The notes below the pieces were generated by a model. That model saw nothing but the letters and a program-made list of their open reading frames with translations, was not told where the DNA came from and searched no databases. From a virus (taxonomy: Duplodnaviria; Heunggongvirae; Uroviricota; Caudoviricetes), in the IMG/VR virus record IMGVR_UViG_3300003973_000001, positions 1 through 64,000 of that record: 64,000 bases of DNA; one strand, written 5' to 3'. The position numbers and the translations under genes were made by a program. Positions 645 to 52,584 of this stretch are shown one piece after another. Each line of letters opens with the position of its first letter. Positions within the stretch are counted from its first letter, which is position 1.

Positions 645-685
645 TAAAATCCATATTTTAATAATTATTACGGAGGTAAAGTGAT

Positions 686-838
686 ATGACAGTTGAAGAG
701 CTTATTGAGGAGCTAAAGCAATTAAATCCTAAGGAAACGCCTTTCTGGGTTGACGAGTATGGGAATAAGCGCATTATCAGCTCTGTGTCTGAAATTGATG
801 GCGACACAATGTTTGACTTAGATTACGAAGAAGAATAA
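686..838 (+). CDS. small hypothetical protein (50 aa)
   Basis: GGAGGT RBS at 673-678, then ATG at 686. Translation MTVEELIEELKQ... Too short for the ORF track. Confidence 0.4.
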   Translation: MTVEELIEELKQLNPKETPFWVDEYGNKRIISSVSEIDGDTMFDLDYEEE

Positions 839-849
839 ATCAAATTACA

Positions 850-868
850 TTAAACAAAAGTATTGCAC
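850..868 (+). promoter_or_regulatory. 19-bp conserved motif, class A (TTAAACAAAAGTATTGCAC); its TTGCAC followed 17 bp later by TATAAT (886-891)
   Basis: Exact-word repeat; see findings. Confidence 0.6.
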
Positions 869-896
869 AAAATAACAGGAAGAGGTATAATAACTT

Positions 897-1253
897 ATGA
901 AGACAAAAGCAGAACTTAAAAGAGAGCAGATTTTAACACGATTACGCAACCGAGGAGAGGTTGGAGCTACTAATGCAGAGCTTTCACACATCTCATTACG
1001 ATATGGTGCACATCTTGGAACACTGTATCAAATGGGTTACAAAATCGAGAAGGAATCTCTTGGAGAAGGTTTATACCGCTACATTTTAAAAGAAGAGCCA
1101 GAAGAAGGATTTGCTAAGATGCCAAAAGCATTAGAAGCTCTAAAGCAACATCTATTAGGACTTGGATATCCAGTTCTAACAAGCAACCTTGACTCTATTC
1201 TTGAAGATGTCGGCATTGCAGTAAAATACAAACCAAATACTTATAACAACTAA
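897..1253 (+). CDS. hypothetical protein
   Basis: ORF preceded by the 19-bp motif (850-868), a TATAAT at 886-891 and an RBS. Confidence 0.6.
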   Translation: MKTKAELKREQILTRLRNRGEVGATNAELSHISLRYGAHLGTLYQMGYKIEKESLGEGLYRYILKEEPEEGFAKMPKALEALKQHLLGLGYPVLTSNLDSILEDVGIAVKYKPNTYNN

Positions 1254-1269
1254 TCTGGAGGATGATAGT

Positions 1270-1548
1270 ATGAAACGCACTATGGATGATTTAACTAACT
1301 GTTTTAACGAAGCAAGTGAAGCAAATTCAAATTATGTATGTGTAGTAGTCAGTATGGCAGGTTTCCCAAAAGAAGAGGTTATTATTAACCAAAGAGAGAA
1401 CTTTGAAGCGAAGCTTAAATACTATCAAAACGTGTATGACAAAGGGTTAGACCACAAGCATGCCACAGGGGTTAAAATCATTGGATTCTCTCATGGCAAC
1501 ACATTTAATCAGATTCAAAAAGAGTTAGCTTTTAAAAACTTACTCTAA
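1270..1548 (+). CDS. hypothetical protein
   Basis: ORF with GGAGG RBS. Confidence 0.6.
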   Translation: MKRTMDDLTNCFNEASEANSNYVCVVVSMAGFPKEEVIINQRENFEAKLKYYQNVYDKGLDHKHATGVKIIGFSHGNTFNQIQKELAFKNLL

Positions 1549-1564
1549 AACAAAAGTATTGCAG
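1546..1564 (+). promoter_or_regulatory. 19-bp motif class A
   Basis: taaaacaaaagtattgcag overlapping the upstream stop codon; RBS follows directly. Confidence 0.55.
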
Positions 1565-1576
1565 AAGAGGTGTAAC

Positions 1577-1706
1577 ATGTTTTCAGCATTCGTACTTCTA
1601 GTGTTATTCATACTCCTTTTAACAGGGGTATGGTACACGCTAGGCAAATTAAACGTATTTGAGAAAATCGGAAACTTTATTTTAAATCTAAAAAATCTAT
1701 TTAACG
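1577..1706 (+). CDS. small hydrophobic membrane peptide (43 aa)
   Basis: AGAGGTG RBS then ATG. Translation MFSAFVLLVLFILLLTGVWYTLGKL... has a single TM segment. Lies immediately upstream of the SPFH gene. Confidence 0.35.
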
Positions 1707-1722
1707 AAAAGGAGTAATTATT

Positions 1723-2556
1723 ATGTCAATCAAAGCAAAAGTTGGAGCAGTAGTAGTAGCAGGAGGATTATTAGCAGGTGGAGTTTTAGGGATTATGTCT
1801 TTAACAGTTATTGACCAGGGACATGCAGGTGTTATCTATTCACGTTCAACAGGTGTACAGGAGCAAACATTAGGTCAAGGATGGCACATGGTTAGCCCAT
1901 TCGAGCGTGTAACAGAGTATCCAGTAGCAACAGAAACAGTTAAGGTAGACACATTTAAGGCTCAAACGAAAGATGGTAAGGCTTTAGAAGTTAGTATGTC
2001 TTATGACTACTCAAATGAATTAGAGAAGTTGCCACACATCTACAATAAATTCAAAGGTCAAGACCCAGATACTATTGAGGAAAGTTGGTTACAAACTCGT
2101 ATTAAGAAGGCTACATTGAATGTATTCTCTAAATACTCAGTTCTAGATGTATTCCAAAAGCAAGGTGAAATTAACGCTGAAGTCGAGAAAGAGTTCCGCG
2201 ACATGGTATCTAAACATGGATTCCGAGTTGATTCTGTAACAGTTGATTCTCCAACTCCAGATAAGAAGACTCGTGAAGCTATCCAAGCAGTAGTTAATGC
2301 ACAACAAGAACTTGAGCGTTCTGAAATCAAGAAGAAACAGGCTATCATCGATGCTGAAAAATCTGTAGAAGAAGCTCGTGGACAAGCTGAATCTGAGCGT
2401 GTTAAAGCTGAAGGCACTGCAAAAGCAAACCAATTACTACGTGAGTCATTAACTCCAGAAGTAATCCAGAACAAAACTATTGAGAAGTGGGACGGTAAAT
2501 TACCACAGGTAACTGGTGGTTCAACGCCAATGATTACAGTTCCACAAGCTAAGTAA
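1723..2556 (+). CDS. SPFH/band-7 (stomatin/prohibitin/HflC-like) membrane protein
   Basis: N-terminal TM segment followed by the SPFH-type block GVIYSRSTGVQEQTLGQGWHMVSPFERV, then a coiled-coil C-terminus. Confidence 0.75.
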   Translation: MSIKAKVGAVVVAGGLLAGGVLGIMSLTVIDQGHAGVIYSRSTGVQEQTLGQGWHMVSPFERVTEYPVATETVKVDTFKAQTKDGKALEVSMSYDYSNELEKLPHIYNKFKGQDPDTIEESWLQTRIKKATLNVFSKYSVLDVFQKQGEINAEVEKEFRDMVSKHGFRVDSVTVDSPTPDKKTREAIQAVVNAQQELERSEIKKKQAIIDAEKSVEEARGQAESERVKAEGTAKANQLLRESLTPEVIQNKTIEKWDGKLPQVTGGSTPMITVPQAK

Positions 2557-2663
2557 TGAAGAAGCGTAATAAGAGAAAGGGGAGCGCCATTGGGGCGTTC
2601 TTCGAATTTCTCGGAGCAATTCTAGAAGCTATATTCGAAGGATTATTTAAGATATTCGATTGA
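2556..2663 (+). CDS. small ORF (35 aa)
   Basis: ATG overlaps the SPFH stop. Basic N-terminus then a hydrophobic stretch. Confidence 0.25.
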   Translation: MKKRNKRKGSAIGAFFEFLGAILEAIFEGLFKIFD

Positions 2664-2673
2664 GGTGATTATA

Positions 2674-2832
2674 TTGGAAAAGACAGTAACAATGCAACTT
2701 AATAAGCAGGAGATACTTATTATCTCTAAAGCTCTAACTAAGGAGCAGTTATCAAAGATGCAATTTGACCCAGAGCTAGATGAGATTACAACTAAGATGG
2801 CTGTATCATATATGGAACTAACAAAAGAATAG
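2674..2832 (+). CDS. small hypothetical protein
   Basis: GAGGTGA RBS then a TTG start; in-frame ATG at 2692. Confidence 0.3.
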   Translation: MEKTVTMQLNKQEILIISKALTKEQLSKMQFDPELDEITTKMAVSYMELTKE

Positions 2833-2850
2833 AGAAGGGAGAGGAAGGCT

Positions 2851-3420
2851 CTGAAGCAGTTTTTAATACGCTATGATGAACTTCCTCCTTCTGTAAACAG
2901 CTACATTAAACCGAGTGCAAAGGTTATGGGTGGCAAGGCGATTGTACATATGTATGAAACGTCTCAAGCAAAGGATTTTAAAAAGAGATTTCAAGCTTAT
3001 TTAAAGCGAGAAGTGGCTAAACAGGGATGGGATAAGTCATCTACTGCAGAAGGACACTTTTACTTGGATTGCGTATTCTACCAGTCCAGAACAAATCAAG
3101 ATAACAATAACTACTACAAAATACTATGTGATGCACTAACTGGAATCGTAATTGAGGATGATAAGAACATTCTAGTCCGTACCCAATGGGTTATGTACGA
3201 TGCTAAGAATCCGCGTTTTATGGCTGTATTACGACCAGTTGAATACAAAGGAATATTTAGAAACCAAGAGTCCTATGGCAGATTCTTTGAGGATAACTGC
3301 TTCAATTGTAAGAAAGATAGCGAGAAATGTGCTATTCTTCGTAAGGCAAAAGAAGGTAGGGTTCAAGAAGATATCGAACAGGATAATAAGGGGTTTGTTT
3401 GCAAAAAGAGGAAGAGATAA
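2851..3420 (+). CDS. rusA: RusA-like Holliday-junction resolvase
   Basis: Motif YYKILCDALTGIVIEDDKNI matches the RusA catalytic region. The track ORF starts at ATG 2926, but the conserved RusA N-terminal motif (ELPPSVNSYIKP) is encoded in-frame upstream without an ATG. Start uncertain: CTG at 2851 or ATG at 2926. Confidence 0.7.
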   Translation: MKQFLIRYDELPPSVNSYIKPSAKVMGGKAIVHMYETSQAKDFKKRFQAYLKREVAKQGWDKSSTAEGHFYLDCVFYQSRTNQDNNNYYKILCDALTGIVIEDDKNILVRTQWVMYDAKNPRFMAVLRPVEYKGIFRNQESYGRFFEDNCFNCKKDSEKCAILRKAKEGRVQEDIEQDNKGFVCKKRKR

Positions 3421-3510
3421 TCTTTCTCTTTTTTTTATTGACTATAGTTGATTCTTGTGTGTTAGTGTGATACTATGTAATTAGAACATGAGGTTAGGAG
3501 AGGGTGATAA

Positions 3511-4548
3511 TTGGTAACAGAAATTGAGAAGATGCTACTCATCGATAATAGAACCAAGAAGAGAATCGGTAGCAATATCTTCTCTCGTGCATCTACAAGA
3601 AAAGGTGGGACTAACCAAGCGTTAAGAACGCCATATTTATATATGTCTACAAAAGAACGTAAAGCACTAAATGGGGAGGTTAAGAGATACAATATGAATG
3701 ATATTATTTCTTACAAAGACTTTAAAACAAAAGATTTACAAGAGAAAAAGAGGTTGATGAACTACTGGAGAGCTAATTATAAAGTTATTGATATCAAGAA
3801 GCAGATGGGTGGAATCACTGACTACATTTTCTACAAAATATTAGACGAGCTTGATATGGATAGAACTCCTTCTGGAGGCGGAGACCATAGAGAGATATTA
3901 GAGATTTCTCCAGAAGAACTTGAACAATATAAGAAGGAGTTTATAGATTATGAAATGTTCAAGCATCTCTCTAGAGAGACCCAATACGAATTGTTTAGTG
4001 TTTACTACGCGAAGACACCTGTTGTTAGTGAACTTGTTAGACAGTGGGAAGGCGCAGAGGCAGGTTATTTATACAACGTTAAAAGTAAGTGGATGAAATT
4101 TATGAAGGCGCAGAAAGCTGAAAAAGATACCAAAGAAGCTCCTAAATCAGAAGGAACTCCAGTTATCAAGGAAGAGAATCCTGCCAAAGAAGAGATTAAG
4201 GAACTGGGACAATCTATTGTAGAGAAATCTCCAGAAGTCTTTGAGAAGAAACCAGAGCCAGTAGCAGTAGTAGAAGAGCTTTCAGAAGATACAGTAGAGA
4301 TAAACGAACCTATAGGTACGGAAGAATCGTCCGAACCAGTAGTAGAAGTTCCAGAAGAGAAGGTAGTTGAGCAAGAAATCAAAGAAGATAAAGAAGATAA
4401 GTCTTCTTCAAATAAGAACAAGTTATCATTTGAGTTAAAAGGAAATTACAGTACAAGTGCTATTATGAAGTGTCTTCAATTTACTTTGGAAACGCTAGAG
4501 CAAGAAGAATCATTAACAGATATAGAAATCAAGGTTAAGAAGAAATAG
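3511..4548 (+). CDS. hypothetical acidic protein (345 aa)
   Basis: TTG start after AGGAGAGGGTGA RBS. Sigma-A-like promoter upstream (TTGACT at 3437, extended -10 TGTGATACT). E/K/P-rich low-complexity C-terminus. Confidence 0.55.
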   Translation: MVTEIEKMLLIDNRTKKRIGSNIFSRASTRKGGTNQALRTPYLYMSTKERKALNGEVKRYNMNDIISYKDFKTKDLQEKKRLMNYWRANYKVIDIKKQMGGITDYIFYKILDELDMDRTPSGGGDHREILEISPEELEQYKKEFIDYEMFKHLSRETQYELFSVYYAKTPVVSELVRQWEGAEAGYLYNVKSKWMKFMKAQKAEKDTKEAPKSEGTPVIKEENPAKEEIKELGQSIVEKSPEVFEKKPEPVAVVEELSEDTVEINEPIGTEESSEPVVEVPEEKVVEQEIKEDKEDKSSSNKNKLSFELKGNYSTSAIMKCLQFTLETLEQEESLTDIEIKVKKK

Positions 4549-4557
4549 GGGATAGAT

Positions 4558-4986
4558 ATGGTTGAAATACTGAGGATGAATTATGAAGAAAGTGTTAGAG
4601 TACACGAAGAGAATGGAATAATGTTAGAAAAGAAAATGTGCTACAACAATGTATTTAATGTATTATCTTATCATACTGGAAAGTTTCGCAGTGGAGAATG
4701 GCGCGTTGCATACGGATATTGGACTGCAATAGATGGTATTATGGCTAGACATTGTTATATAGTTGATAAGGATAATAATGTAATTGACCCTACAGCACCA
4801 CTTTCTACTGACGAAAATGTCAAAGATAAGAAGTATCTCACATTCAAAATAATTGACGGTCTAGATTCATATCTAGACCTTATAAATGAACATGACAGAG
4901 AACCTGCTCTATATAGAGCTTTCCTAGAAGAAGAAAAGGAAGCTCACGAATATGCTATGAAGAATAACTTAATTCTTATAACATGA
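4558..4986 (+). CDS. hypothetical protein
   Basis: ORF track. Confidence 0.55.
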   Translation: MVEILRMNYEESVRVHEENGIMLEKKMCYNNVFNVLSYHTGKFRSGEWRVAYGYWTAIDGIMARHCYIVDKDNNVIDPTAPLSTDENVKDKKYLTFKIIDGLDSYLDLINEHDREPALYRAFLEEEKEAHEYAMKNNLILIT

Positions 4987-5113
4987 GTATCATCTGTAGT
5001 CATCAATGTCATGAAGCCTATTGTATAAGAATTGGCTTTGTGACATAATATGGTTACAGATATACTATATAGTATATACTGTTACCATTAGAGACACTAA
5101 GGAGGATACGAGT

Positions 5114-5281
5114 ATGAGTAGCAAAAAGAGAGTACTCAATCCAGTAGAAATTAAAAAAGATGTAGATTACATTCCACTAGGAAGAGCATTCGATTTCTGG
5201 AACAACGAGGGAGACGATATTTATGACGAAGTCTATGGGGAAGACAGTGAATCAGGGCGAGGTATGGATAGCAAACGTTAA
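5114..5281 (+). CDS. small acidic ORF (55 aa), antitoxin candidate
   Basis: TAAGGAGG RBS at 5098-5105, ATG at 5114. Overlaps the MazF-like gene in another frame. Acidic C-terminus (DDIYDEVYGEDSESG). Confidence 0.3.
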   Translation: MSSKKRVLNPVEIKKDVDYIPLGRAFDFWNNEGDDIYDEVYGEDSESGRGMDSKR

Positions 5282-5567
5282 GTTCGTCCAAGATAATCAA
5301 ACCAAAGTCAGACCAGTCTTAGCAATAAGCTTAGAAATCGATGGGGATGACGATGTTGTCGTCCTCCCTGTCACTTCTCAGAATCCAAGAAATGACTACG
5401 ATGTAGAAGTTTCGGATTACAAAGGGACTGGATTGTTAAAACAACCATCGTACATAAGAACATCAAAGCCATTAACAATCGAAAAGAGAGAGCTTAAAAG
5501 AAAAATAGGCGAAATCAAAGATGTTGACCTAGCGAACGCATTGGAAAAGTTTCGTTCATTATTTTAA
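5223..5567 (+). CDS. MazF/PemK-like (CcdB/MazF fold) toxin endoribonuclease
   Basis: GEVWIANVKF...TKVRPVLAIS...VVVLPVTSQ...YIRTSKPLTIEKREL matches the MazF/PemK pattern (GDI-WxxxF...KxRPxLVxS...xxPxTS). Start is ATG 5223 or ATG 5235. Confidence 0.6.
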   Translation: MTKSMGKTVNQGEVWIANVKFVQDNQTKVRPVLAISLEIDGDDDVVVLPVTSQNPRNDYDVEVSDYKGTGLLKQPSYIRTSKPLTIEKRELKRKIGEIKDVDLANALEKFRSLF

Positions 5568-5573
5568 GCAGAA

Positions 5574-5612
5574 AAGATGGAAGATTCATAGTCTTTCATC
5601 TTTTTATTTTTC
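5574..5612 (+). terminator. rho-independent terminator after the MazF-like gene
   Basis: GATGGAAGA-ttcata-GTCTTTCATC stem followed by TTTTTATTTTT. Confidence 0.55.
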
Positions 5613-5616
5613 TCTG

Positions 5617-5728
5617 ATATCTCAAAAGACAAGTATTCTCTACTCTATGAGATATGATACCAATTTCATAATTATACTTAATATCTCATAAATATAAGTA
5701 ATCTTAACTTTCTGAGATGTCTTACAAC
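5617..5728. repeat. four operator-like half-site repeats (TGAGATAT / ATATCTCA) in alternating orientation
   Basis: gatatctca (5621), tgagatatg (5649), atatctcat (5685), tgagatgtc (5716). Confidence 0.4.
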
Positions 5729-5794
5729 CTCAAAAAATGACTACCTATAATAAAGCTTATGTAAACTAACTAAAAGTAAGTAGGTAAATAAAGC

Positions 5795-5831
5795 AAAACC
5801 CTCCTGCATGAACAGGAAGGCTGTTTTAGGA
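5795..5831 (-). terminator. rho-independent terminator for the small minus-strand gene
   Basis: CCTTCCTG-ttcatg-CAGGAGGG then TTTTGCTTTATTT on the minus strand. Confidence 0.5.
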
Positions 5832-5950
5832 TTCTGTATATTTTGTTGTATATTTGTTATGTAGATTTTACATAGCTATATGCTACCAGAGCGTCCTCTG
5901 GTGTATCGATACTCCCCTATTGTACTAAATGAGAGAGCGAATATCAATAT

Positions 5951-6112
5951 CTAATTTTTAGTTGCTTTCTTAGCAATATTATTAAATTTCTTAACTTCCT
6001 CAATATTCAAATCTTTTAGTTCTACATCTCTAACAGAACCATCCGTATATATCCCTACAGGTATAAGATGACCGTTCTCGTCTTTTCTTGCTCCAATAGT
6101 TACTCTAATCAT
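5951..6112 (-). CDS. small hypothetical protein (53 aa)
   Basis: Strong AGGAGAGG RBS, ATG at 6110-6112. Own rho-independent terminator at 5795-5831. Divergent from the XRE gene. Confidence 0.45.
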   Translation of the reverse strand: MIRVTIGARKDENGHLIPVGIYTDGSVRDVELKDLNIEEVKKFNNIAKKATKN

Positions 6113-6241
6113 TTATACTTCACCTCTCCTCATTTTATATAATAGCAAAAAATAGCCTCGCTCACTAACTTAACTTTTCTTGACCAATCGGTTAAGTTTT
6201 GTTAAGATAGCCTTACTATAATTTTACAAAGGAGAATCTAC

Positions 6242-6595
6242 ATGTCCGATATTGCTCATGTCACCGCAAAAAGAGTTAAAATGTTAAGATTAAAGAAAGG
6301 ATTGACTCAAAAGAGTCTTGGGGAATTGGTTGGGGTATCTGAAGCATTTATATCCATGATAGAATCTAGGTCATCTACTAACAAGAGACCATCTGGGAAA
6401 ACTATATCTCTTATAGCAGAAGCCTTAAACGTATCAACTGATTACTTATTAGGATTATCTAATACAGAAGATTTATTACCTTACTCTGATACAAGAAGAG
6501 AATTTGAAGCAATCATTGAAAAGGTCGAGCAGTTAGATGAGGATAAGCGTGTGATGGTCATAAAGATGATTCAATCTATGGTCAAAACATTATAA
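6242..6595 (+). CDS. XRE-family helix-turn-helix transcriptional regulator (CI/Cro-like)
   Basis: HTH block LTQKSLGELVGVSEAFISMIE. Sigma-A-like promoter upstream (TTGACC-17-TAAGAT and a TATAAT at 6216). Confidence 0.8.
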   Translation: MSDIAHVTAKRVKMLRLKKGLTQKSLGELVGVSEAFISMIESRSSTNKRPSGKTISLIAEALNVSTDYLLGLSNTEDLLPYSDTRREFEAIIEKVEQLDEDKRVMVIKMIQSMVKTL

Positions 6596-6651
6596 TTGCT
6601 GTTAGCGCATAATATTACGATACAATGGCTACACTTCTATTGGAGGTGTAT

Positions 6652-6889
6652 CATGTTATTTAAGAAGAGTAAGTCCCAGAAGGAAAAGGAGTTTAAGGCA
6701 ATTGAGGATATGTTAGTTAGCTCCAAGATAAAGTACGATGCGTATACTCTCGATTTGGTTAATGTCAAACATGATGAGACAAAGGAATTACTATCCAGAG
6801 AAATCGTTCATCTAAGAGAACTAATCGACACTCTGAAAATTACATATGTGGAATATGAGAAGAAGCATTTAAAGCGCAGAGAGAAATAG
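6652..6889 (+). CDS. hypothetical coiled-coil protein
   Basis: GGAGGTG RBS then ATG 6652. The track ORF from 6596 looks over-extended. Confidence 0.45.
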
Positions 6890-6926
6890 CATGGTATAAT
6901 ATGTATGAGTCGCGTCATTTTTCATT

Positions 6927-6958
6927 GCCTTGGCTAACCCCCAAGGTTTCTTTTTAAT
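6927..6958 (+). terminator. rho-independent terminator
   Basis: CCTTGG-ctaaccc-CCAAGG followed by TTTCTTTTTAATT. Confidence 0.55.
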
Positions 6959-7021
6959 TATCCCAATATTCTGAATAATATTGAAAAATAAGGCTATTTC
7001 ACTTTCGCTTCATTCTCCTAC

Positions 7022-7040
7022 TATATAATAGGAAGAAACA
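7022..7040 (+). promoter_or_regulatory. TATATAATAGGAAGAAAC promoter-like element (copy 1, upstream of rap)
   Basis: Perfect TATAAT plus conserved downstream AGGAAGAAAC. Same 18-mer at 10261 and (one base shorter) at 55133. Confidence 0.45.
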
Positions 7041-7071
7041 TGACATATATATATGGATGAAGGAGGATACT

Positions 7072-8166
7072 ATGAACGTCCCAGTCAAAGGAAACGAAAA
7101 GATTACGCAGTTATTAAACGAATGGTACATTGAAATTCGTGCCAGACGAATTGGTCAAGCTCATAGATTGAAAGAAGAGATTGATAAAAAGATTGATAGT
7201 ATAGAAAAAGACCAAACTCTACTATTGTATTACTCTCTCTTAGACTTTCGATACCAGTACATTTTAGACAATCTAGGAGTCTCTGTTAACAGCTTTGATA
7301 AGGTTGAAGAGTTTGAGATTCCAACGAACAACTTTTTAACTTATTACTACCACTTTTTTAAGGCTATTCATGCTTCTGGTATTGGTAACTACATGATAGC
7401 AAAAGAACACTTTGACAAAGCTGAATCTCTTCTTGAATTAGTTCCAGATGAGATTGAAAAAGCTGAGTTCTACTACAAATTAGGCGCTTTCCACTATGAC
7501 ATCTACGAATCACTTAACTCAGTTAAATATACTTCAAAGGCAAAGGAAATCTTTGAGCAACATGAAAATTACGAGCGAAACATAGGTTTCTGCGAGAATC
7601 TTCTTGGAACTGCTTGTACAAAGCTAAGAGAATGGGCTTTGTCAGAAGAGCATCTTATTAAGGCTATGGATATTTTCAGTAAGCATGGAGAAGAAAAATA
7701 TGTTCTAATGGTTAGACATAACTTAGGATATATGTATTCTAGTCAGAACTTATCTCCACTAGCAATTAGATATTTATCAGAGGTGACAAACCACAATCCT
7801 AGACATCACAAAGCTTTATTCTTACAAGCTAGAGAGCATTACAAATTAGATGAGCTTGATATCGCAAAAGATTTGGCTGATAGAGGATATAGTATCTGTC
7901 TTGAGTTGGGGAATATAGAGTATAAGCACCTTTTTGCAATTCTGAAATGTCTTATCTCGAATGTGTCTAGTGATGAATTGGAGAAGGTTACAATTGAAGG
8001 AATATCTTACTTTGAAGGCGAATCATTATATGAGTATATAGAAGAGAGTCAAGAGTATATGGCTGTTAAGTTCTATGAAGAAGGCAACCATACTAAATCT
8101 AGTGAATACTTCTATCTAGCTTCAAAAACGAGACAAAAAATTAAGGAAAGGGAGTCTTTAAAATGA
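7072..8166 (+). CDS. rap: Rap-family (RNPP) TPR quorum-sensing regulator/phosphatase
   Basis: About 365 aa. N-terminus ...KITQLLNEWYIEIRARRIGQAHRLKEEIDK...LLLYYSLLDFRYQYIL resembles Bacillus Rap N-termini. TPR-like repeats throughout. AAGGAGG RBS before ATG 7072. Confidence 0.8.
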   Translation: MNVPVKGNEKITQLLNEWYIEIRARRIGQAHRLKEEIDKKIDSIEKDQTLLLYYSLLDFRYQYILDNLGVSVNSFDKVEEFEIPTNNFLTYYYHFFKAIHASGIGNYMIAKEHFDKAESLLELVPDEIEKAEFYYKLGAFHYDIYESLNSVKYTSKAKEIFEQHENYERNIGFCENLLGTACTKLREWALSEEHLIKAMDIFSKHGEEKYVLMVRHNLGYMYSSQNLSPLAIRYLSEVTNHNPRHHKALFLQAREHYKLDELDIAKDLADRGYSICLELGNIEYKHLFAILKCLISNVSSDELEKVTIEGISYFEGESLYEYIEESQEYMAVKFYEEGNHTKSSEYFYLASKTRQKIKERESLK

Positions 8167-8297
8167 AAAAAGTAGCATTGGGCTTAATGGGAATTTTAAC
8201 AGCTTTAACTATGATTGTGAGCGTTCAGTCTAATAGTGATAGTAAGCCTGCATCTCCTACTATTATGATGATGGAACATGGAGACCATGGTGGTTGA
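8163..8297 (+). CDS. phr: Phr-like secreted signalling peptide precursor (44 aa)
   Basis: ATG overlaps the rap stop (ATGA). Translation MKKVALGLMGILTALTMIVSVQSNSDSKPASPTIMMMEHGDHGG has a signal peptide plus a short polar tail. Canonical rap-phr arrangement. Confidence 0.55.
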   Translation: MKKVALGLMGILTALTMIVSVQSNSDSKPASPTIMMMEHGDHGG

Positions 8298-8313
8298 TAA
8301 GAATATAAAATGA

Positions 8314-8365
8314 AATAGCCAACCCACATTATATAGAGTGGGATTGGCTATTATTTTCCTTAAAT
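8314..8365. terminator. bidirectional terminator between phr (+) and the papain-like gene (-)
   Basis: Long hairpin AATAGCCAACCCAC-(11 nt loop)-GTGGGATTGGCTATT with T-runs on both sides. The minus-gene stop codon sits in the loop. Confidence 0.55.
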
Positions 8366-8844
8366 TTCTTTACGTATTTTATAAAATCGTATAGTTGGTT
8401 TGGGGTCATATCTATTCCACGAGTTCCGCCTCTAAGAGAAAGTTCTTTTAAAGTTCCTGCCTCTTCCAATACGACAAATACTAGCTCGGAACATATGTAA
8501 TTATTAGGATTATTAAATTTATTCTTACCCTTTAGCCTTAATAACTTGCTAATCATATACCAGATAATTTGCATATAATCGTATTTTTTACCAACCATTT
8601 TCGTTCCTATATCTACTACCCTACTTCTCTCTTCTTTGTTAAGCTCTAAATCAATTACTTCTATTATATTATATTGTTCCCTATCGAATGGGACTATAGA
8701 AACTCTTGTATCAAAATCCGCCTCCAATATATGAGTATTAGACATGGCGATTGCTACGTGACTAAATGTTCCCTTATCGAAGAATCGTACAGCTTTTGAT
8801 ATAAAGCTTTTGCCTTGTAGAAATACTACGTCACCTTGTTTCAA
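8329..8844 (-). CDS. permuted papain-like (NlpC/P60 superfamily, YiiX/DUF830-like) putative peptidase
   Basis: Pattern MKxGDVVF...SxxI...SHVAIA...YICSELV is typical of permuted papain-fold amidases. Lies in the lysis neighbourhood. Confidence 0.45.
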   Translation of the reverse strand: MKQGDVVFLQGKSFISKAVRFFDKGTFSHVAIAMSNTHILEADFDTRVSIVPFDREQYNIIEVIDLELNKEERSRVVDIGTKMVGKKYDYMQIIWYMISKLLRLKGKNKFNNPNNYICSELVFVVLEEAGTLKELSLRGGTRGIDMTPNQLYDFIKYVKKFKENNSQSHSI

Positions 8845-8858
8845 AGGAATCTCCCTTT

Positions 8859-9140
8859 CTATTTGCGCTTACGATATTTTAATAGCAATGAAAATTCAAT
8901 CGAACATAAAGTTAATGCAATCGTATTTGTAATCATAAATGCCCCTGCTGTATGAAGCACAAACCACATGTAGATAGCATAAGCCTCCATAAATGCTACA
9001 CCTAAACAGATTCCGCCTAGATAGGTTACACTAAAGTCGTCTACCGATTTTGTACGAATGAATTTAATGATTTGAGGAATGTATCCGAAACTCAATATTA
9101 ATCCACCTATTAACTGTAAAGTATTAAAAAATTCTGTCAT
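8859..9140 (-). CDS. PQ-loop (SemiSWEET-like) small membrane protein, putative holin
   Basis: 93 aa with 3 predicted TM segments. GYIPQIIKFIRTK PQ-motif. Adjacent to the endolysin. Confidence 0.45.
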   Translation of the reverse strand: MTEFFNTLQLIGGLILSFGYIPQIIKFIRTKSVDDFSVTYLGGICLGVAFMEAYAIYMWFVLHTAGAFMITNTIALTLCSIEFSLLLKYRKRK

Positions 9141-9235
9141 TATTTATATATCTCCTTATCTTTTCTTCCATTTAAAAGGTTCGAACATAGCGTTAGCTAC
9201 ATCCGAACCAATAGATTAATAAAATCTAAGTTTTA

Positions 9236-10213
9236 TTACTTAACGTGTACGTATGAAGGACTTGCAGTAATGTAGAAATACTTACATCTGTACATCTTAG
9301 AACCGTTAACTGTTAATTCCTCAAGGATTGTAAATGCTTCGCCCTTCGGAACAGTTTTTTCTTTTGCATTCCAATCTGGAGCTGAGTAGACCCATAACTC
9401 TGGAGCATCTACTACAACTAATTTCCCTACATTGCTAGTTTGTCTACGTGCAAAACGAGTGTAGCTAGGGTCTCCATATATCCACTGGTCTCCACCAAGG
9501 TTTAGCCATCCATCCTTTTCTGCCCATACAACATAGTCTTCTGGAGAGTTTAAGTAGCGAATAAATTCTCCACTTGTGCTTGGAGACTTACGCAATTTAA
9601 TGTTAGTACCTTCGATATAAACGATACCTAAACCTTGCGTTCCTGCATCCCCACCGCCAGTTGGAGGAGCGATTGTGTTACCGCCACCAGAGCCATTGCT
9701 GCCTTGAACCATACTCTTGAATCCTTCGAATCCACCAGAACGATTTAAGATTGGTCGTGGGCAATATTTACCAGACCAACGTTGGTGAGGTACTACATTT
9801 CCAATGCCGATACCAGTCTGTCCCATTAAGAACTTAACTAATTTAGCACAGTTTGCTAATGCTTTCTCAAAGTTGCCATCTGAGTTTTCAGCAGTTTCGA
9901 TACCGATTGATTGGCGATTACCTGTTCCACTGCCACCATCTCCTGCATGCCAACCATTTTCATTAAGTGGTAAATGCTGAATGATACGTTTGTCATCTAC
10001 TGTAAAGTGCCAAGACACTCCTGCCGAACCGCCACCATTGTTAACAAAGTTAGAGTGAGCTAAAGCATCTGCTCCTTTGTCAGTGTTTTCAGTTGTATGA
10101 ACTGTAATGTACTTAGCTGTCATTGCATGTGCAGGACGATTACTATTACCCTTTGGAATTTCTCTAACTTCGAAAGGTACTCCACCAATGCTTGATACGT
10201 TTAAAAATGTCAT
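9236..10213 (-). CDS. endolysin: N-acetylmuramoyl-L-alanine amidase (Amidase_2/PGRP) with SH3b-like C-terminal binding domain
   Basis: Amidase_2 signature residues (H..H...E, CPRP) in the N-terminal 160 aa. C-terminal W/Y-rich SH3-like module. Confidence 0.85.
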   Translation of the reverse strand: MTFLNVSSIGGVPFEVREIPKGNSNRPAHAMTAKYITVHTTENTDKGADALAHSNFVNNGGGSAGVSWHFTVDDKRIIQHLPLNENGWHAGDGGSGTGNRQSIGIETAENSDGNFEKALANCAKLVKFLMGQTGIGIGNVVPHQRWSGKYCPRPILNRSGGFEGFKSMVQGSNGSGGGNTIAPPTGGGDAGTQGLGIVYIEGTNIKLRKSPSTSGEFIRYLNSPEDYVVWAEKDGWLNLGGDQWIYGDPSYTRFARRQTSNVGKLVVVDAPELWVYSAPDWNAKEKTVPKGEAFTILEELTVNGSKMYRCKYFYITASPSYVHVK

Positions 10214-10260
10214 ATAAATCTCCTTCTCTTGCTCTTTGGCAAGCTCTTATTTTTGTTTTA

Positions 10261-10292
10261 TATATAATAGGAAGAAACTCGGTTTAAATCGG
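10261..10292 (+). promoter_or_regulatory. TATATAATAGGAAGAAACTCGGTTTAAATCGG element (copy 2), antisense within the minus-strand late block
   Basis: 30-bp similarity to the copy at 55133. Preceded by hairpin CTTGC-TCTTTG-GCAAG plus a T-run. Confidence 0.4.
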
Positions 10293-10310
10293 CTCTCCCT
10301 ATTGATATCT

Positions 10311-10329
10311 CTGCAATACTTTTGTTTAA
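10311..10329 (-). promoter_or_regulatory. 19-bp motif class A (upstream of endolysin)
   Basis: Plus-strand ctgcaatacttttgtttaa. Confidence 0.55.
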
Positions 10330-10333
10330 TAAT

Positions 10334-10972
10334 CTATTTTGTATAAGTGATTTTTAACTGAGGCGCACCCCAATCACCATATCCATTGAAGATACCGTAG
10401 TATTCTCCGTTACCAGTATTAGCAAATATACTAACACCTTTATAATAGCCATCTCGAATCCCATAACCTAGAGCTACTGGAAGGTTAACCCATCCTGCAC
10501 TTCCGCGATTATAGAACTTCTGATAAGCTTTACCATATTCTGAATGGCTGAATGTATTTGGCTTACTGCCATGATTGTGGAATCCTGCGACTACAGTACC
10601 ACCTGCATAATAGTACCAATGCTCATTCTGTAAATACAACTCTACCTTATCGATACGCGCTCCTTGTAATTCGTTACGGATTCTTGAACCGTCATCAAAT
10701 CCAATTAGAGAACGCATGATTCCCCAAGGCTCATAAACATATCGACCTTGACAAATCTTTTCTGAGCGATAATCGGTACGTTTTGTACCTGCTTCACGAT
10801 AAGTTTGAGTAAATGTACAACCCCACGTTTTTGTATATGTTTGAGAGGTCATATTAGACCATCCAGAGCCATTCCATTTATACACTTTAGCATCTTGCCA
10901 ACTAGAGCCATTCCATGCCTTCACGCTTGCATCGTACCATTCAGAACCGCTCCATCTTTTGATATTACTCAC
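10334..10972 (-). CDS. hypothetical W/G/Y-rich protein (tail fibre or wall-binding associated)
   Basis: ORF. Repeated WNGS-type motifs. Confidence 0.5.
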   Translation of the reverse strand: MSNIKRWSGSEWYDASVKAWNGSSWQDAKVYKWNGSGWSNMTSQTYTKTWGCTFTQTYREAGTKRTDYRSEKICQGRYVYEPWGIMRSLIGFDDGSRIRNELQGARIDKVELYLQNEHWYYYAGGTVVAGFHNHGSKPNTFSHSEYGKAYQKFYNRGSAGWVNLPVALGYGIRDGYYKGVSIFANTGNGEYYGIFNGYGDWGAPQLKITYTK

Positions 10973-10987
10973 AACAACACTCCCTCT

Positions 10988-12358
10988 CTACACTTGAATC
11001 CAAATGTCTCCATAAGAAGCGCCAGATGGGGCATCCCCTCGAATATGAAGTCTTTTACCTTGTATTCTAATCTGGTTATTGAATTCCATCATGTTTTCAT
11101 TTCTGTTTGCAGTAAAGAAGTATCTGTCGTTATTCCAGTCGTACATGCCCAATTGTTTTGTATTATTGTTCATATAGAACCCCATACCCTTGTCGCCATC
11201 ATCTGCTCGGAACTTAAGGTCAGTTTCCTTATTCTTACTATTAAATTCCATTCCATACTCTGAAGTAATTACTCCATCATGTCGAACTCTCATATCTCCA
11301 TAGAATTGAGAACGCAGAACTAAAGTTCCGTTAGAATCAACGAATACACGACCAATTTCTCCATTACCGCCTTCTGCGAATACAAGGTCTCCAGAATTCA
11401 TAGAGCCTGCAGGCGCACGAAGAACGATGTCTTTACCATCTGTCATGATAAGATTCTTTTGGAAGTTAGGCTCTTCATCAACCCTAGCAAATTGATTAGC
11501 ATGAATGCCATCTAGCTTATCTGCATCTAAGCCACTTCCACTACCCATTTTCCCTGTATGCCAAACAGAATGTTCTTCTATTCCATCGTAGAACTTTAGA
11601 GTCTTTTTAGTATTAGTGTGAATGACTGTTTGAGCGCTCGTATCACCAATGATAACTGCATTGGCTACGCTGATTCTACCGATATTTATTGCTGAGCCAC
11701 CAGTATTTTTACCAGAGATTGACTGATTGTTTGCTACTGAAAGACCACCACTTAATGAACCGCCAGATAACTTAAGATAAGTATTATCGTGGTTATGATT
11801 AGTAGAATCCTTGCCCAATTGAGCGATAGCTGTCGCATTATCAGATGCTTTCTTTAGAGCTACATCTACCTCTGTTTGAACCTCATTTACTGCGCTTACA
11901 ACGCTAGTTTTATCAGAAGTTTTTAAGCTTGCTATTGAGCCGATGCTCGCATTGATAGTAGCAATTGCATCATTTGTTTTCTTACCGCCTGCGCTCCACG
12001 CACCAACTGTGTTGCCTACGATTGCTCTTTGGTGAGTATCGTTTCCTGCATGGTCGTAAAATGTTTGTAGAGCGACTGTATCTACAGCATCCACCTTCAT
12101 AAGATAAGTAGTTGTAGTCACCATACCAGACGGAGAATTTGTACAACCTTTAACTCGGTATAATCCATTCTCTTTGACTGTATTTAGGTTAACGCCTTGT
12201 AGTAGTTTACCTAGAAGGAACATTTCATTAAAATCTGATGTGATACCGCTAGTACCAACGATTTTAACCTGTTCCGCTTGTGTTTCATAATGGAGAGTAT
12301 CATAATCTGTTCCATTATGGATTTTAGCTTTAGACTTTTTAATTACCAAGTCTATCAT
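10988..12358 (-). CDS. putative tail fibre / receptor-binding protein
   Basis: 456 aa, G/S/T/N-rich beta-type sequence. Position is distal in the tail module. Confidence 0.5.
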   Translation of the reverse strand: MIDLVIKKSKAKIHNGTDYDTLHYETQAEQVKIVGTSGITSDFNEMFLLGKLLQGVNLNTVKENGLYRVKGCTNSPSGMVTTTTYLMKVDAVDTVALQTFYDHAGNDTHQRAIVGNTVGAWSAGGKKTNDAIATINASIGSIASLKTSDKTSVVSAVNEVQTEVDVALKKASDNATAIAQLGKDSTNHNHDNTYLKLSGGSLSGGLSVANNQSISGKNTGGSAINIGRISVANAVIIGDTSAQTVIHTNTKKTLKFYDGIEEHSVWHTGKMGSGSGLDADKLDGIHANQFARVDEEPNFQKNLIMTDGKDIVLRAPAGSMNSGDLVFAEGGNGEIGRVFVDSNGTLVLRSQFYGDMRVRHDGVITSEYGMEFNSKNKETDLKFRADDGDKGMGFYMNNNTKQLGMYDWNNDRYFFTANRNENMMEFNNQIRIQGKRLHIRGDAPSGASYGDIWIQV

Positions 12359-12367
12359 TCTCCTTTC

Positions 12368-12754
12368 TTATTCAATCTCTAATATTACGTTTATTGGCAT
12401 TTGCAATTCTTCATCCCATAACTGCTCTATAGAACTTACAATTCTATTTTCAACGTCATCATAGATATGGAACATATCTTGATTAATAGATGAGATTACG
12501 CCTTGAACAATCTTCTGGGCATTGTTATTTCCGATATCCTGCACGATTACAATGTCGTCAATATCAACAAATGAAACTAGATTATGAGGTATAATACATT
12601 CAGATTCACTGCCAAATACTTCAACTACACATCGTAAACCTTTTACATCTCTTACAATGCCAGTGTATGACTTTGTAAAGTTTACATTTTTAAGTCTTTC
12701 ACCTGCTAAAATCCGTACAGTTTCTAGCAGGCTATTTTGGATATCCTTCATCAC
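12368..12754 (-). CDS. hypothetical protein (paralog of the next gene)
   Basis: ORF. Shares the C..VE..G.E..C..P..L......D.V.VQD..NN..K..VQ pattern with 12751..13026. Confidence 0.5.
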   Translation of the reverse strand: MMKDIQNSLLETVRILAGERLKNVNFTKSYTGIVRDVKGLRCVVEVFGSESECIIPHNLVSFVDIDDIVIVQDIGNNNAQKIVQGVISSINQDMFHIYDDVENRIVSSIEQLWDEELQMPINVILEIE

Positions 12755-13026
12755 TGTTTCGTACCAATCTTACTTTGCACGAATTTTTTAACACTGTTGT
12801 TATACAGGTCTTGCACAATAACAATATCTCCTACACCTATTTCCGTATGGAGATGCTCTGGTACTTTGCATGTTTCCTCATTCCCATATAACTCTACAAT
12901 GCAATCAAAGCCCATTAATTTCTTAACAAGACCAACATGAGAAGATGTGTAAGATGTACTCTTAACCGCCTCATCTACCATGATTTGAATTGCATCTATT
13001 AAACTAGTTTGTAGGTTTTTGTCCAC
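12751..13026 (-). CDS. hypothetical protein (tandem paralog)
   Basis: ORF. Overlaps the previous gene by 4 nt. Confidence 0.5.
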   Translation of the reverse strand: MDKNLQTSLIDAIQIMVDEAVKSTSYTSSHVGLVKKLMGFDCIVELYGNEETCKVPEHLHTEIGVGDIVIVQDLYNNSVKKFVQSKIGTKQ

Positions 13027-13040
13027 CTTACATCACCTCT

Positions 13041-13733
13041 TTAGTCAATAATTTCAATCCACATTAGACCTTCTTGCTGAACAGCAGGAGCAGTTTTACT
13101 TGCAATAAATCTATCAAACAAGAACCAATACGTCACATCAGTAGGCGCTTTACCTGCTGTCGTGTCTTTAGAGCAATAGAATAAGTTCCCTTGATAAGAT
13201 ACTGCATCCCCTACTTTGTAAGTAGCAGTTGCGCTGTATTGCCCACGATAATAGGTATTTAATCCAACGTCACCCTTATCACCTTTTGTAGAAACCTTTT
13301 GCCAGTAGCCAGTGTTTGTTGGAACTGTACCTGCAGGCGTATTCTTTGTACATAAGTACAGGTCGCCATTATACGTAACCATATTTTGAAACTTGTATCC
13401 TACAGATGCACTGTATACGCCTTTATGAACAAAGTCATTTACGTATGTAGCCCACTCTGCTTGCTTCGTATTAATGTATCCATCTACCTTATCTTTAAAG
13501 AACGTTTCTACATTGACGATACAATCAGCCATCTTATTAAACGTTTCTGGAGTAATAATATAGCTATTTAATTGAGATGTTAAACCATTCAATTCATTTT
13601 GCTCCGTCTGATTTAACGTAGGCTTAAGCTTTAATTCTTGATATCGCTTAGCTTGATTAAACTTACTAGGAGGCATGTCAAAAAGTTCGACAAATGAATC
13701 TACTTTACTTGGAAATTGACTTCTATTAGCCAA
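13041..13733 (-). CDS. tail-associated protein
   Basis: TTG start after AAAGGA RBS. Preceded by motif, hairpin, motif. Confidence 0.5.
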   Translation of the reverse strand: MANRSQFPSKVDSFVELFDMPPSKFNQAKRYQELKLKPTLNQTEQNELNGLTSQLNSYIITPETFNKMADCIVNVETFFKDKVDGYINTKQAEWATYVNDFVHKGVYSASVGYKFQNMVTYNGDLYLCTKNTPAGTVPTNTGYWQKVSTKGDKGDVGLNTYYRGQYSATATYKVGDAVSYQGNLFYCSKDTTAGKAPTDVTYWFLFDRFIASKTAPAVQQEGLMWIEIID

Positions 13734-13748
13734 AATACTTCATCCTTT

Positions 13749-13767
13749 CTGCAAATCTTTCGTTTAA
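13749..13767 (-). promoter_or_regulatory. 19-bp motif class B (TTAAACGAAAGATTTGCAG)
   Basis: Plus-strand ctgcaaatctttcgtttaa, 15 nt before the TTG start. Confidence 0.55.
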
Positions 13768-13826
13768 TAACCTCCATACGACACTACTTAAATGTCTACT
13801 ACCATGATATCATATATTGGAGGTTA

Positions 13827-13846
13827 TTGCAATACTTTTGTTTTAA
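13827..13846 (-). promoter_or_regulatory. 19-bp motif class A, directly after the stop of the upstream gene
   Basis: ttgcaatacttttgttttaa. Separated from the class-B copy by a 9-bp-stem hairpin (13776-13826). Confidence 0.55.
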
Positions 13847-13848
13847 AT

Positions 13849-16888: not shown

Positions 16889-16901
16889 ATTATCACCTCT
16901 C

Positions 16902-17996: not shown

Positions 17997-18011
17997 TTAA
18001 ACACCCTTTCT

Positions 18012-18030: not shown

Positions 18031-18060
18031 GAGGAGTGATTAAACTCCCCTAAGCATCAA

Positions 18061-25563: not shown

Positions 25564-25584
25564 TAAGCTAACACCTTCCTTTTT

Positions 25585-51525: not shown

Positions 51526-52584
51526 TTATTTATTTTTGATGGCGATTTTATAAAGCTCTTTAACGTAGAATTCTGCTGACTTTTTAGCGATTCGTGTAAT
51601 CGTCTCTGAAACAGTATTCTTCTTGATTCCCAGTAATTCCTCTAGTTCTTCTTGTGCATATCCCTGTCTGAATAAGTCAACAATACTTTGCTCACGAACA
51701 GTCAGAACCATTCTATCTAGCATTCTATTGTAGTCATATATAATGATTCCTAATCCATCTTCATCCATCATATCTTCTCTATTAAGCATTCTGAGAAGCT
51801 CTTTGTTATTTACAATATCAGCGAAATCAATAACATCTAACTTGTTTGCCACACCCTCATCCTTAAGTAGATTCTTAAATTCGATAGGACGCTTGATAGC
51901 TTTCTTGATAGCAATCTGATTATCTTTCGCCTCGCGAATCCAACGAGTTACATAGCCTTTGACGTTTTTGCGAATCTTTAGGAGCTTCGCACGAGCCTCT
52001 TCTTCCATTATAATAGGAAGAGATGCGTCAATTCGATTTTCAATCATCTTCACAAACGAGTCGTCTCCTGCCTTTTCGACTAAGTCTTGCAGTCTGCCAA
52101 TCTCTACTATTTCTCTAATATCCTTAGAAAGTATACTCATACCCTTGACTAGCTTCTGATTTTTATCTTCATTAGAATAGAACATATCGAATACTTCTAC
52201 TTCTGAATTGCCATCTCCACTTTCAAATGCTGAAGCTACAACGTTCTCAGACTCTTTATATTGCTTGAACTCTCTCTCACTCTTCCAAAATCGGTACTCT
52301 ACCTTTCTGTTAGTGTCGATATCTTTTGCATTAAGAAGATATGTACCTAGCATCTCTAACGTTCGGCATACAGCATCCTGCTCAGCCATCCAACCTTGTT
52401 GCGTTGGGCTTACATCGTAATATTCACCAAAGTATGCAGAGAAGAATTCATGTACATTCCCTTCTCCATCACCAATCACTTCATTTATTACCTCTAATCT
52501 ATCATGAAACTTCTCAACTGAATAATCCTGCTGTTGGAAATCCACCAATTTTTTACCTGCAATTGAACTACTGAAGTACTTCAC
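51526..52584 (-). CDS. phage-encoded sigma-70-family sigma factor
   Basis: C-terminal region-4 HTH (QSIVDLFRQGYAQEELEELLGIKKNTVSETITRIAKK). 352 aa. Confidence 0.6.
   Translation of the reverse strand: MKYFSSSIAGKKLVDFQQQDYSVEKFHDRLEVINEVIGDGEGNVHEFFSAYFGEYYDVSPTQQGWMAEQDAVCRTLEMLGTYLLNAKDIDTNRKVEYRFWKSEREFKQYKESENVVASAFESGDGNSEVEVFDMFYSNEDKNQKLVKGMSILSKDIREIVEIGRLQDLVEKAGDDSFVKMIENRIDASLPIIMEEEARAKLLKIRKNVKGYVTRWIREAKDNQIAIKKAIKRPIEFKNLLKDEGVANKLDVIDFADIVNNKELLRMLNREDMMDEDGLGIIIYDYNRMLDRMVLTVREQSIVDLFRQGYAQEELEELLGIKKNTVSETITRIAKKSAEFYVKELYKIAIKNK

Follow-up and report, generated by a model that had tools for sequence, protein, structure and literature searches.

Which kind of communication system is encoded by two overlapping genes of a large phage, and which decision would it control? 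The genes, rap and phr, lie in a stretch of 64,000 nucleotides (positions 1 to 64,000 of the IMG/VR virus record IMGVR_UViG_3300003973_000001, referred to as the window). An earlier note on this DNA, made from the sequence alone, had read them as a Rap-Phr quorum-sensing cassette. We found a full-length Rap receptor gene followed by the gene of a Phr precursor. As far as sequence comparison goes, the cassette is probably a functional accessory ('moron') unit encoding a Phr-inhibited phosphatase of Spo0F~P, which would delay sporulation and biofilm formation in lysogens.

The Rap receptor

The open reading frame (ORF) at 7072..8166 encodes a full-length Rap receptor. Its product comprises 364 amino acids (aa), one fewer than the 365 aa given in the earlier note. 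All rap homologues begin with MNV and are 364 aa long; an alternative in-frame ATG at 7057 is not preceded by a ribosome-binding site. The earlier note had proposed a tetratricopeptide repeat (TPR) protein with a Rap-type N-terminus and a profile search of 7072..8166 as a check. Such a search yielded a strong match of Pfam RapH_N (PF18801) to residues 7-66 (E=1.8e-23, 82.7 bits, gathering score 27), and TPR_12 also matched. No helix-turn-helix (HTH) family was among the Pfam matches of the protein, even at E<=1. When compared with PDB sequences by phmmer, the protein matched RapF best (full length, E=9e-35), followed by further full-length matches to RapI, RapJ, Rap105 of phage phi105, RapH, Rap3T of phage phi3T and the Rap of plasmid pLS20.

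An AlphaFold2 model built on 25 relatives reached a mean predicted local distance difference test score (pLDDT) of 93.6 and a predicted template modelling score (pTM) of 0.90. In the model, N-terminal helices at residues 9-23, 27-44 and 48-65 are followed by a short linker helix, and the 14 helices of the C-terminal domain, from residue 87 to 362, constitute seven TPRs. Foldseek gave template modelling (TM) scores of 0.85 to peptide-bound RapF-PhrF (4i9c), 0.81 to RapJ-PhrC (4gyo) and 0.81-0.82 to Rap3T. The folds of RapI and pLS20 Rap also matched, while NprR was a much weaker match than the Raps. In view of the E-values and the conservation, these patterns did not arise by chance, and the Rap-type protein of the earlier note is confirmed. 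The absence of a DNA-binding HTH separates Rap from NprR, PlcR, PrgX, Rgg and AimR.

Arbitrium, the phage-phage communication by AimR and AimP, had first been suspected from the peptide ending in GG and the SPbeta-like character of the phage. Large SPbeta-like phages often have arbitrium, and many arbitrium peptides end in GG. The capsid-like protein of the window is similar to its counterparts in large SPbeta-like and phiCD211-like siphoviruses, and the propeptide of about 44 aa likewise ends in GG. However, the receptor has the RapH_N three-helix bundle and matches no AimR or HTH family at E<=1, its best matches in sequence and fold are all Raps, and downstream of phr lie a terminator and a convergent gene instead of an aimX-like unit. 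The RapH_N match and the absent HTH rule arbitrium out as the identity of this cassette, and we give it next to no weight. No arbitrium system was seen in the 64-kb window, whereas phi3T has one in addition to its Rap-Phr pair.

The Phr precursor and the predicted pheromone

The start codon of phr (8163-8165) overlaps the stop codon of rap (TGA, 8164-8166), which results in the ATGA at 8163-8166 reported in the earlier note. The sequence AAAGGGAGTC.TTTAAAATGA around the ribosome-binding site of phr is conserved in the related loci L001-L005. The N-terminus of the encoded peptide carries two lysines and an 18-residue hydrophobic core (mean Kyte-Doolittle value 2.29). A candidate cleavage site (V-Q-S, cut before N) satisfies the -3/-1 rule and leaves a hydrophilic tail of 21 residues. 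All heuristic features of the signal peptide and short hydrophilic tail noted before are thus present. The NCBIfam model Phr_nterm (TIGR04429) matched the window peptide with E=0.0014 and 19 bits, below its curated cut-off of 25, and matched 15 of 24 relatives at E<=0.01 (best 3e-7).

A stronger argument than the signal-peptide score comes from comparative conservation. Homologues of rap were collected from genomes, plasmids and assemblies. Behind 83 of these 86 genes, an ORF in the same orientation overlaps or adjoins the rap stop codon and encodes an N-terminus that is first basic and then hydrophobic. The canonical rap-phr architecture is therefore upheld, and neither outcome named in the earlier note as refuting the cassette was obtained, since a Rap profile matched and the small ORF shows signal-peptide features. 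On these comparative grounds, the 44-aa ORF (8163..8297) is a Phr precursor, whose export, processing, re-import and binding to Rap are predicted.

The C-terminal residues MEHGDHGG are invariant wherever the Rap of a relative is 73-95% identical to that of the window, while the middle of the propeptide is variable. In the wider clade the C-terminus reads xHG[DN]xGG, and other clades have different C-termini or internal repeats. One locus (L019) encodes the exact sequence of BXA0205Phr, and the C-terminal series xHGxxGG is common to this peptide and the EHGDHGG of the window. The Phr peptides of two further loci (L078 and L084) end in YAHGKDI, which is the Phr8 heptapeptide. By analogy with the active C-termini GHTGG of BXA0205Phr and YAHGKDI of Phr8, the mature signal would be the C-terminal GDHGG, possibly extended to EHGDHGG.

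Comparison with characterised Rap-Phr systems

The closest characterised relative of the window Rap is BXA0205 of the Bacillus anthracis plasmid pXO1, with 54.9% identity over the full length. Together with the related pairs RapK-PhrK and RapF-PhrF on plasmids of B. thuringiensis 407 (Bt407), both fall into the same B. cereus-group Rap clade and share gene order and the catalytic Gln. Both precursors are propeptides of about 44-46 aa with the motif HGxxGG at the active (here, predicted) extreme C-terminus, GHTGG in BXA0205Phr and GDHGG in the window. An extrachromosomal carrier, for the window a probable one, is a further likeness, although the window cassette is located on a phage and BXA0205 on a virulence/toxin plasmid. 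Since two of the five peptide positions differ (D for H and H for T in the window), the window peptide probably represents a pherotype separate from BXA0205Phr. The window Rap also differs from BXA0205-like proteins next to the catalytic Gln, where it has K46 and T49 instead of E and N.

Rap3T/Rapphi of phi3T and Rap105 of phi105 are likewise phage-borne accessory Rap-Phr systems, and the model of the window Rap superimposes on their structures with TM scores of 0.77-0.82 (8rst, 8rsv and 8rte). Binding of the peptide to Rap3T and Rap105 shuts the TPR pocket around a conserved Asn (PMC11343458), and we propose the same logic for the window Rap. However, the window Rap is only 23-30% identical to these proteins and belongs to a different host group, GDHGG is unrelated to their peptides (RRGHTA/SRGHTS and ERPVGT), and the window propeptide has no internal pheromone repeats. 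The B. cereus-group Raps have diversified independently.

Further B. cereus-group Rap-Phr pairs on mobile elements are Rap8-Phr8 (plasmid pHT8_1) and Rap63-Phr63 (pAW63) of B. thuringiensis HD73. These pairs control sporulation, and active Phr8 is the C-terminal heptapeptide YAHGKDI (bioRxiv 10.1101/784611). Rap8 and Rap63 are 46.7% and 43% identical to the window Rap, respectively, but belong to another pherogroup (HGKDI) and are plasmid-borne.

Spo0F as the probable target

An alignment was made of the window Rap, 24 relatives and RapH, whose sequence was checked to be 100% identical to 3q15_A. Functional tests of the Spo0F interface of RapH, including the requirement for a catalytic Gln/Glu, have been published (PMC3035606). 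The window Rap keeps RapH D46, Q47 (catalytic), L50, L55, F58, D134, E137 and Y175 as D47, Q48, L51, L56, F59, D126, E129 and Y167. Of the functionally tested interface residues, 7/9 are kept; of eight RapH positions whose importance mutagenesis has demonstrated (E45, D46, L50, F58, L96, D134, E137 and Y175), 6/8 are identical. N217 corresponds to RapH N225, and all of the B. cereus-group relatives compared (25/25) have this Asn. In Rap3T and Rap105, the conserved Asn (N226 and N220, respectively) anchors the Phr backbone (PMC11343458).

Functional data for related proteins point in the same direction. BXA0205 is a phosphatase of Spo0F~P, and the pentapeptide GHTGG from the C-terminus of its Phr inhibits it (PMC4147580). 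Overexpression of RapK or RapF of Bt407, which belong to the same pherogroup, abolishes sporulation (bioRxiv 10.1101/784611), and in B. subtilis the phage protein Rap3T acts as a repressor of sporulation and competence reporters (PMC11343458). A host-encoded target is favoured because the same cassette occurs in phage, plasmid and chromosomal contexts with unrelated flanks. The earlier note had offered tuning of host sporulation, competence or lysis-lysogeny. Clade membership with BXA0205, the catalytic Gln and the 7/9 interface residues favour the first of these, acting through the sporulation phosphorelay; nothing was found in support of a role in competence or lysis-lysogeny.

We therefore propose the following model. 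A weak promoter at about 6965-7029 would drive both genes as one transcript, ending at 8314-8352. Cytoplasmic Rap would bind Spo0F~P of the host and strip its phosphate via Gln48, so that the phosphorelay is drained and Spo0A-dependent sporulation and biofilm formation are held back in phage-carrying cells. Pre-pro-Phr would leave the cell via Sec and be trimmed outside to a C-terminal peptide (GDHGG to EHGDHGG), which the oligopeptide permease would bring back in. In the TPR pocket of Rap, anchored by Asn217, the peptide would close the receptor into an inactive form. The delay would thus be lifted only at a high density of phage-carrying cells.

Several observations weigh against Spo0F as the target. 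RapH E45 is replaced by K46, which reverses the charge, and RapH L96 by F88. Lys46 takes the position of RapH Glu45 that lines the pocket for Spo0F Tyr84, and RapH-E45A is strongly impaired in vivo (PMC3035606). The window and the phage copies L086, L087 and L091 read IEKDQT in this region (residues 46-49, 7207..7218), whereas BXA0205-like, Rap8-like and most B. cereus-group Raps read IEEDQN. Retention of Q48 is necessary but insufficient, since RapF keeps the Gln and yet is not a Spo0F phosphatase but targets ComA (PMC3035606). For some Raps of the B. cereus group, the affected trait is protease production or spreading, not sporulation (bioRxiv 10.1101/784611). Finally, the promoter is weak by consensus.

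Part of this evidence would also suit a Rap that binds and inhibits a different response regulator or transcription factor of the host without phosphatase activity. Such a protein would control a collective trait other than sporulation, such as extracellular proteases, spreading or other public goods, and allow lysogens to 'cheat' at low density. Several B. thuringiensis Raps lower protease activity or spreading when overexpressed, some of them without the catalytic Gln (bioRxiv 10.1101/784611), and both the ComA-directed RapF and the loss of the conserved Glu of the Tyr84 pocket are in line with this explanation. On the other hand, the members of the xGxxGG-peptide clade (BXA0205 as well as RapK and RapF of Bt407) are shown or proposed Spo0F phosphatases with the strongest sporulation phenotypes, and most of the tested interface residues are kept. 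We consider such a different host target unlikely.

Genomic neighbourhood and a target on the mobile element

The cassette is located at the junction of a rightward accessory arm (RusA, Band7, MazF-like toxin and XRE genes) and a leftward lysis/tail block. The earlier note had placed it in the early arm beside an XRE repressor. The repressor is real (HTH_3, E=2e-13), but the cassette sits at the junction of arm and lysis genes, outside any early operon.

This neighbourhood raises the question of whether the target of Rap is a regulator belonging to the mobile element, in which case Rap-Phr would set prophage induction or lysis-lysogeny according to lysogen density. In ICEBs1, RapI activates ImmA, which destroys ImmR, and the Rap of pLS20 sequesters a conjugation repressor. 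Like the window pair, RapI-PhrI and the pLS20 Rap-Phr are mobile-element pairs near repressor genes of the element and have the same fold, which the Foldseek matches to RapI and pLS20 Rap reflect. The window cassette follows directly downstream of the XRE/RstR-like operon (6242..6889), and K46 and T49 next to the catalytic Gln are lineage-derived. In Bacillus sp. RC251 and a second assembly (L002 8802..11229 and L003 2750..5177), an 87%-identical Rap-Phr pair directly follows an XRE and ImmA-like (Peptidase_M78) pair in the same orientation.

However, RapI and pLS20 Rap regulate the transfer of their own elements via ImmA/ImmR or Rco, whereas no ImmA-like gene adjoins rap in the window. The ORF abutting the XRE gene (6596/6653..6889, 78-97 aa) had no Pfam or PHROG match, and no ImmA-like partner was found there. 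The phage genome L087 has the XRE two-gene module with its terminator (6242..6947), and L086 has part of it. The syntenic B. gaemokensis phage (L006/L089), which has rap-phr without XRE or MazF, lacks the module, as does the B. wiedmannii phage-plasmid (L085). Because of these absences, the XRE module is taken, from this comparison, as a separate variable unit outside the Rap-Phr cassette. In non-phage contexts (L004 and B. thuringiensis megaplasmids), near-identical cassettes with the same peptide have no repressor nearby. Moreover, a terminator (6927-6947) lies between the XRE and rap units, and the Spo0F interface is largely kept. A regulator of the element as the target therefore appears doubtful to us. 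The arrangement in L002 and L003 recalls the ImmR/ImmA-RapI logic of ICEBs1.

A related idea is that of re-targeting. The IEKDQT changes could weaken Spo0F binding, with Rap acting on a phage or plasmid regulator, such as the XRE/RstR-like repressor or the antirepressor pathway. We rate this as improbable, and somewhat more so than the two preceding alternatives. If true, the cassette would serve the phage as a switch of its own, setting induction or lysis-lysogeny by density, and would be a Rap-based functional analogue of arbitrium.

Transcription signals

The own TATAAT promoter element described in the earlier note is present and conserved (TATAAT or TATTAT in relatives), but no good -35 element was found for it, and a consensus scan for sigma-70 promoters on the + strand from 6950 to 7056 called none. 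Upstream of it lies a conserved, partly palindromic block (6965-6989). In a sensitive alignment, this block and the -10 element accompany rap in phage, megaplasmid and chromosomal copies with otherwise unrelated flanks, and a function as operator or promoter element is probable. The block resembles the CodY box AATTTTCWGAAAATT with 3 mismatches. The window contains 10 matches of this quality where 10.6 would be expected by chance, and the CodY assignment was rejected. The terminator-like hairpin at 6927..6947 would insulate rap-phr as a separate transcription unit.

Downstream of phr, the bidirectional terminator of the earlier note was recovered. The hairpin at 8314..8352 has folding free energies (dG) of -19.2/-19.6 kcal/mol and z-scores (z) of -6.7/-5.9 on the two strands, 0/200 shuffles were as good, and a U-rich tract follows on each strand. 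The stop codon of the convergent hydrolase gene (8329..8844, minus strand) is located inside this hairpin, which overlaps the last codons of the gene.

Distribution, mobility and selection

In IMG/VR, six viral genomes of 120-153 kb encode Raps 70-95% identical to that of the window, and in those of 120-137 kb the cassette occupies the same site. One of them (L087, an uncultivated virus genome of 126.4 kb) is collinear with window positions 684-18164 at 89%. In the comparison of L086 and L091 with window 6947..8300, the cassette is 87% identical, whereas the phage flanks are 66-76% identical. Two causes are suggested by this contrast, either transfer of the cassette from phage to phage or a much stronger constraint on it than on its neighbours. 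In L089, which equals the B. gaemokensis contig L006, rap-phr has the same position beside hydrolase, holin and amidase genes. The phage-plasmid of B. wiedmannii SR52 (L085) has no rap-phr, and a single small unrelated gene lies between MazF and the hydrolase. In this small sample, the cassette is thus present in the window, L087, L086, L091 and L089/L006 and absent in L085. A further search for relatives, starting from the neighbouring hydrolase and from a tail protein, yielded no more than the two closest viral contigs.

Neither the cassette nor the structural region had a megablast match among deposited phages, and the exact Rap protein sequence had no match in public assemblies. Among 50,697 deposited phage genomes, no Rap was more than 33% identical to that of the window; the 33 Rap matches obtained were all from B. 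subtilis-group phages. Outside phages, the cassette is carried with about 85% nucleotide and up to 91% protein identity by B. thuringiensis megaplasmids (YBT-1520, HD-1, CT-43 and others), and it is also found in other contexts. The same mature-peptide region is found in B. thuringiensis megaplasmid, chromosomal prophage-like and phage copies, where homology does not extend beyond about 6950/7040..8300, and in non-phage copies the detectable homology is confined to approximately 7033/7044..8295/8300. Given the BXA0205-type pheromone, this distribution points to one cassette that may have been exchanged between phages and B. thuringiensis toxin/virulence megaplasmids. Typical B. cereus-group rap-phr sequences were also observed in assemblies labelled Flavobacteriaceae bacterium CP2B, Sphingobium lactosutens and Microbacteriaceae bacterium 4G12 (L019, L078 and protein P0040), and these labels likely reflect assembly contamination or mislabelling.

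The ratio of nonsynonymous to synonymous substitution rates (dN/dS) was measured against the three closest phage copies. It amounts to 0.04-0.10 for rap, at dS of 0.29-0.70, and to 0.11-0.25 for phr. These values indicate that both genes are maintained by selection and that rap is under strong purifying selection. A decaying passenger without current function could be suspected from the absence of the cassette in the SR52 element and the weak promoter. However, both ORFs are intact with conserved ribosome-binding sites, the low rap ratio holds up to a dS of 0.7, the lineage shows no variation in the mature-peptide region, and in L086/L091 the cassette is better conserved than its flanks. A decaying passenger is therefore very unlikely.

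Phage context

The cassette sits in a real phage, a temperate siphovirus of about 130 kb that is probably plasmid-borne. As the earlier note had it, the cassette accompanies structural genes: terminase, portal, capsid-like, tape measure and tail proteins, an amidase and an antirepressor are all encoded in the window (Table 1). No integrase was seen among the ORFs scanned. The replication and partition genes, together with the circular 'plasmid' of B. wiedmannii SR52 (NZ_CP032366, 137.6 kb), which has the same tail and lysis genes, suggest that the phage may be kept as a plasmid-prophage. The close homologues of Rap come without exception from the B. cereus group, for which reason this group is regarded as the host.

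The MazF module is present in the B. wiedmannii relative and absent from the B. gaemokensis relative. A small ORF upstream (5021..5281) overlaps the MazF-like toxin gene and could encode an antitoxin. The sigma factor gene (51526..52584) may be notable in a phage of a spore-former that also carries a Rap.

Table 1 Features of the window, with the rap-phr cassette and its signals first
Feature	Position	Strand	Remarks
rap	7072..8166	+	364 aa; N-terminal 3-helix bundle and 7 TPRs; Q48 predicted catalytic, N217 predicted peptide anchor
rap ribosome-binding site AGGAGG	7061..7066	+	5 nt before ATG; kept in all aligned relatives
phr	8163..8297	+	44-aa pre-pro-peptide MKKVALGLMGILTALTMIVSVQSNSDSKPASPTIMMMEHGDHGG; ATGA overlap with rap stop
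phr ribosome-binding site GGGAG	8150..8154	+	within rap 3' end
Predicted Sec signal peptide MKKVALGLMGILTALTMIVSVQS	8163..8231	+	cleavage after VQS; heuristic basis only
Predicted mature pheromone region EHGDHGG	8274..8294	+	pentapeptide GDHGG at 8280..8294
Candidate -10 element TATAAT	7024..7029	+	TATAAT or TATTAT in relatives
Conserved block AATATTCTGAATAATATTGAAAAAT	6965..6989	+	about 25 nt, partly palindromic; probable operator/promoter element
Terminator-like hairpin closing the upstream XRE operon	6927..6947	+	dG -8.9, z -2.5; followed by TTTCTTTTT
Bidirectional intrinsic terminator	8314..8359	both	serves rap-phr (+) and convergent hydrolase/lysis genes (-)
RusA	2926-3420		
MazF/PemK-like toxin	5223..5567	+	PemK_toxin E=4e-15
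XRE/RstR-like repressor	6242..6595	+	117 aa; HTH_3 E=2e-13
YiiX/C92-type hydrolase	8329-8844	-	
PQ-loop repeat membrane protein	8859-9140	-	93 aa; between amidase and YiiX/C92-type hydrolase, the expected holin position
Amidase	9236-10213		
Tape measure protein	18061-25590	-	2,509 aa
Tail protein, multi-domain	29338-35988	-	2,216 aa; matches host-range/adsorption and glycerophosphodiesterase-type families
Capsid-like protein	40674-41657		about 35% identical to the counterparts in Brevibacillus phage Sundance, phiCD211 and SPbeta-like staphylococcal phages
Portal	43631-45163		
Terminase large subunit	45151-46902		
Sigma factor	51526-52584	-	352 aa; phrog_5767 E=1e-36; no Pfam match
Replication initiator	55396-56445	+	
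Bro/KilAC antirepressor	57021-57818		
Helicase	57886-59850		
Alp7A-like actin-type partition protein	60712-61878	+	

Significance

Phage-borne Rap-Phr systems are already established, with hundreds described. Bernard et al. found 333 prophage-borne systems and described Rapphi-Phrphi of phi3T (PMC8027211). RRNPP_detector located Rap-Phr on 1,531 mobile elements, with a polyphyletic distribution among phages (PMC10075063; bioRxiv 10.1101/2021.07.15.452460), and for Rap3T and Rap105 solved structures and reporter phenotypes are available (PMC11343458). The system of the window belongs to a phage of the B. cereus group and has a pheromone of the BXA0205 type. What it adds is modest, namely a clean B. 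cereus-group example on a large, probably plasmid-borne phage.

The established idea is that a phage Rap-Phr lets the virus couple the sporulation or biofilm decision of its host to the density of virus-carrying cells, and a benefit of this kind would be expected for the phage of the window. The timing of sporulation is relevant to the production of B. thuringiensis biopesticides and to the persistence of the B. cereus group, and a prophage that may delay sporulation is worth knowing in both respects.

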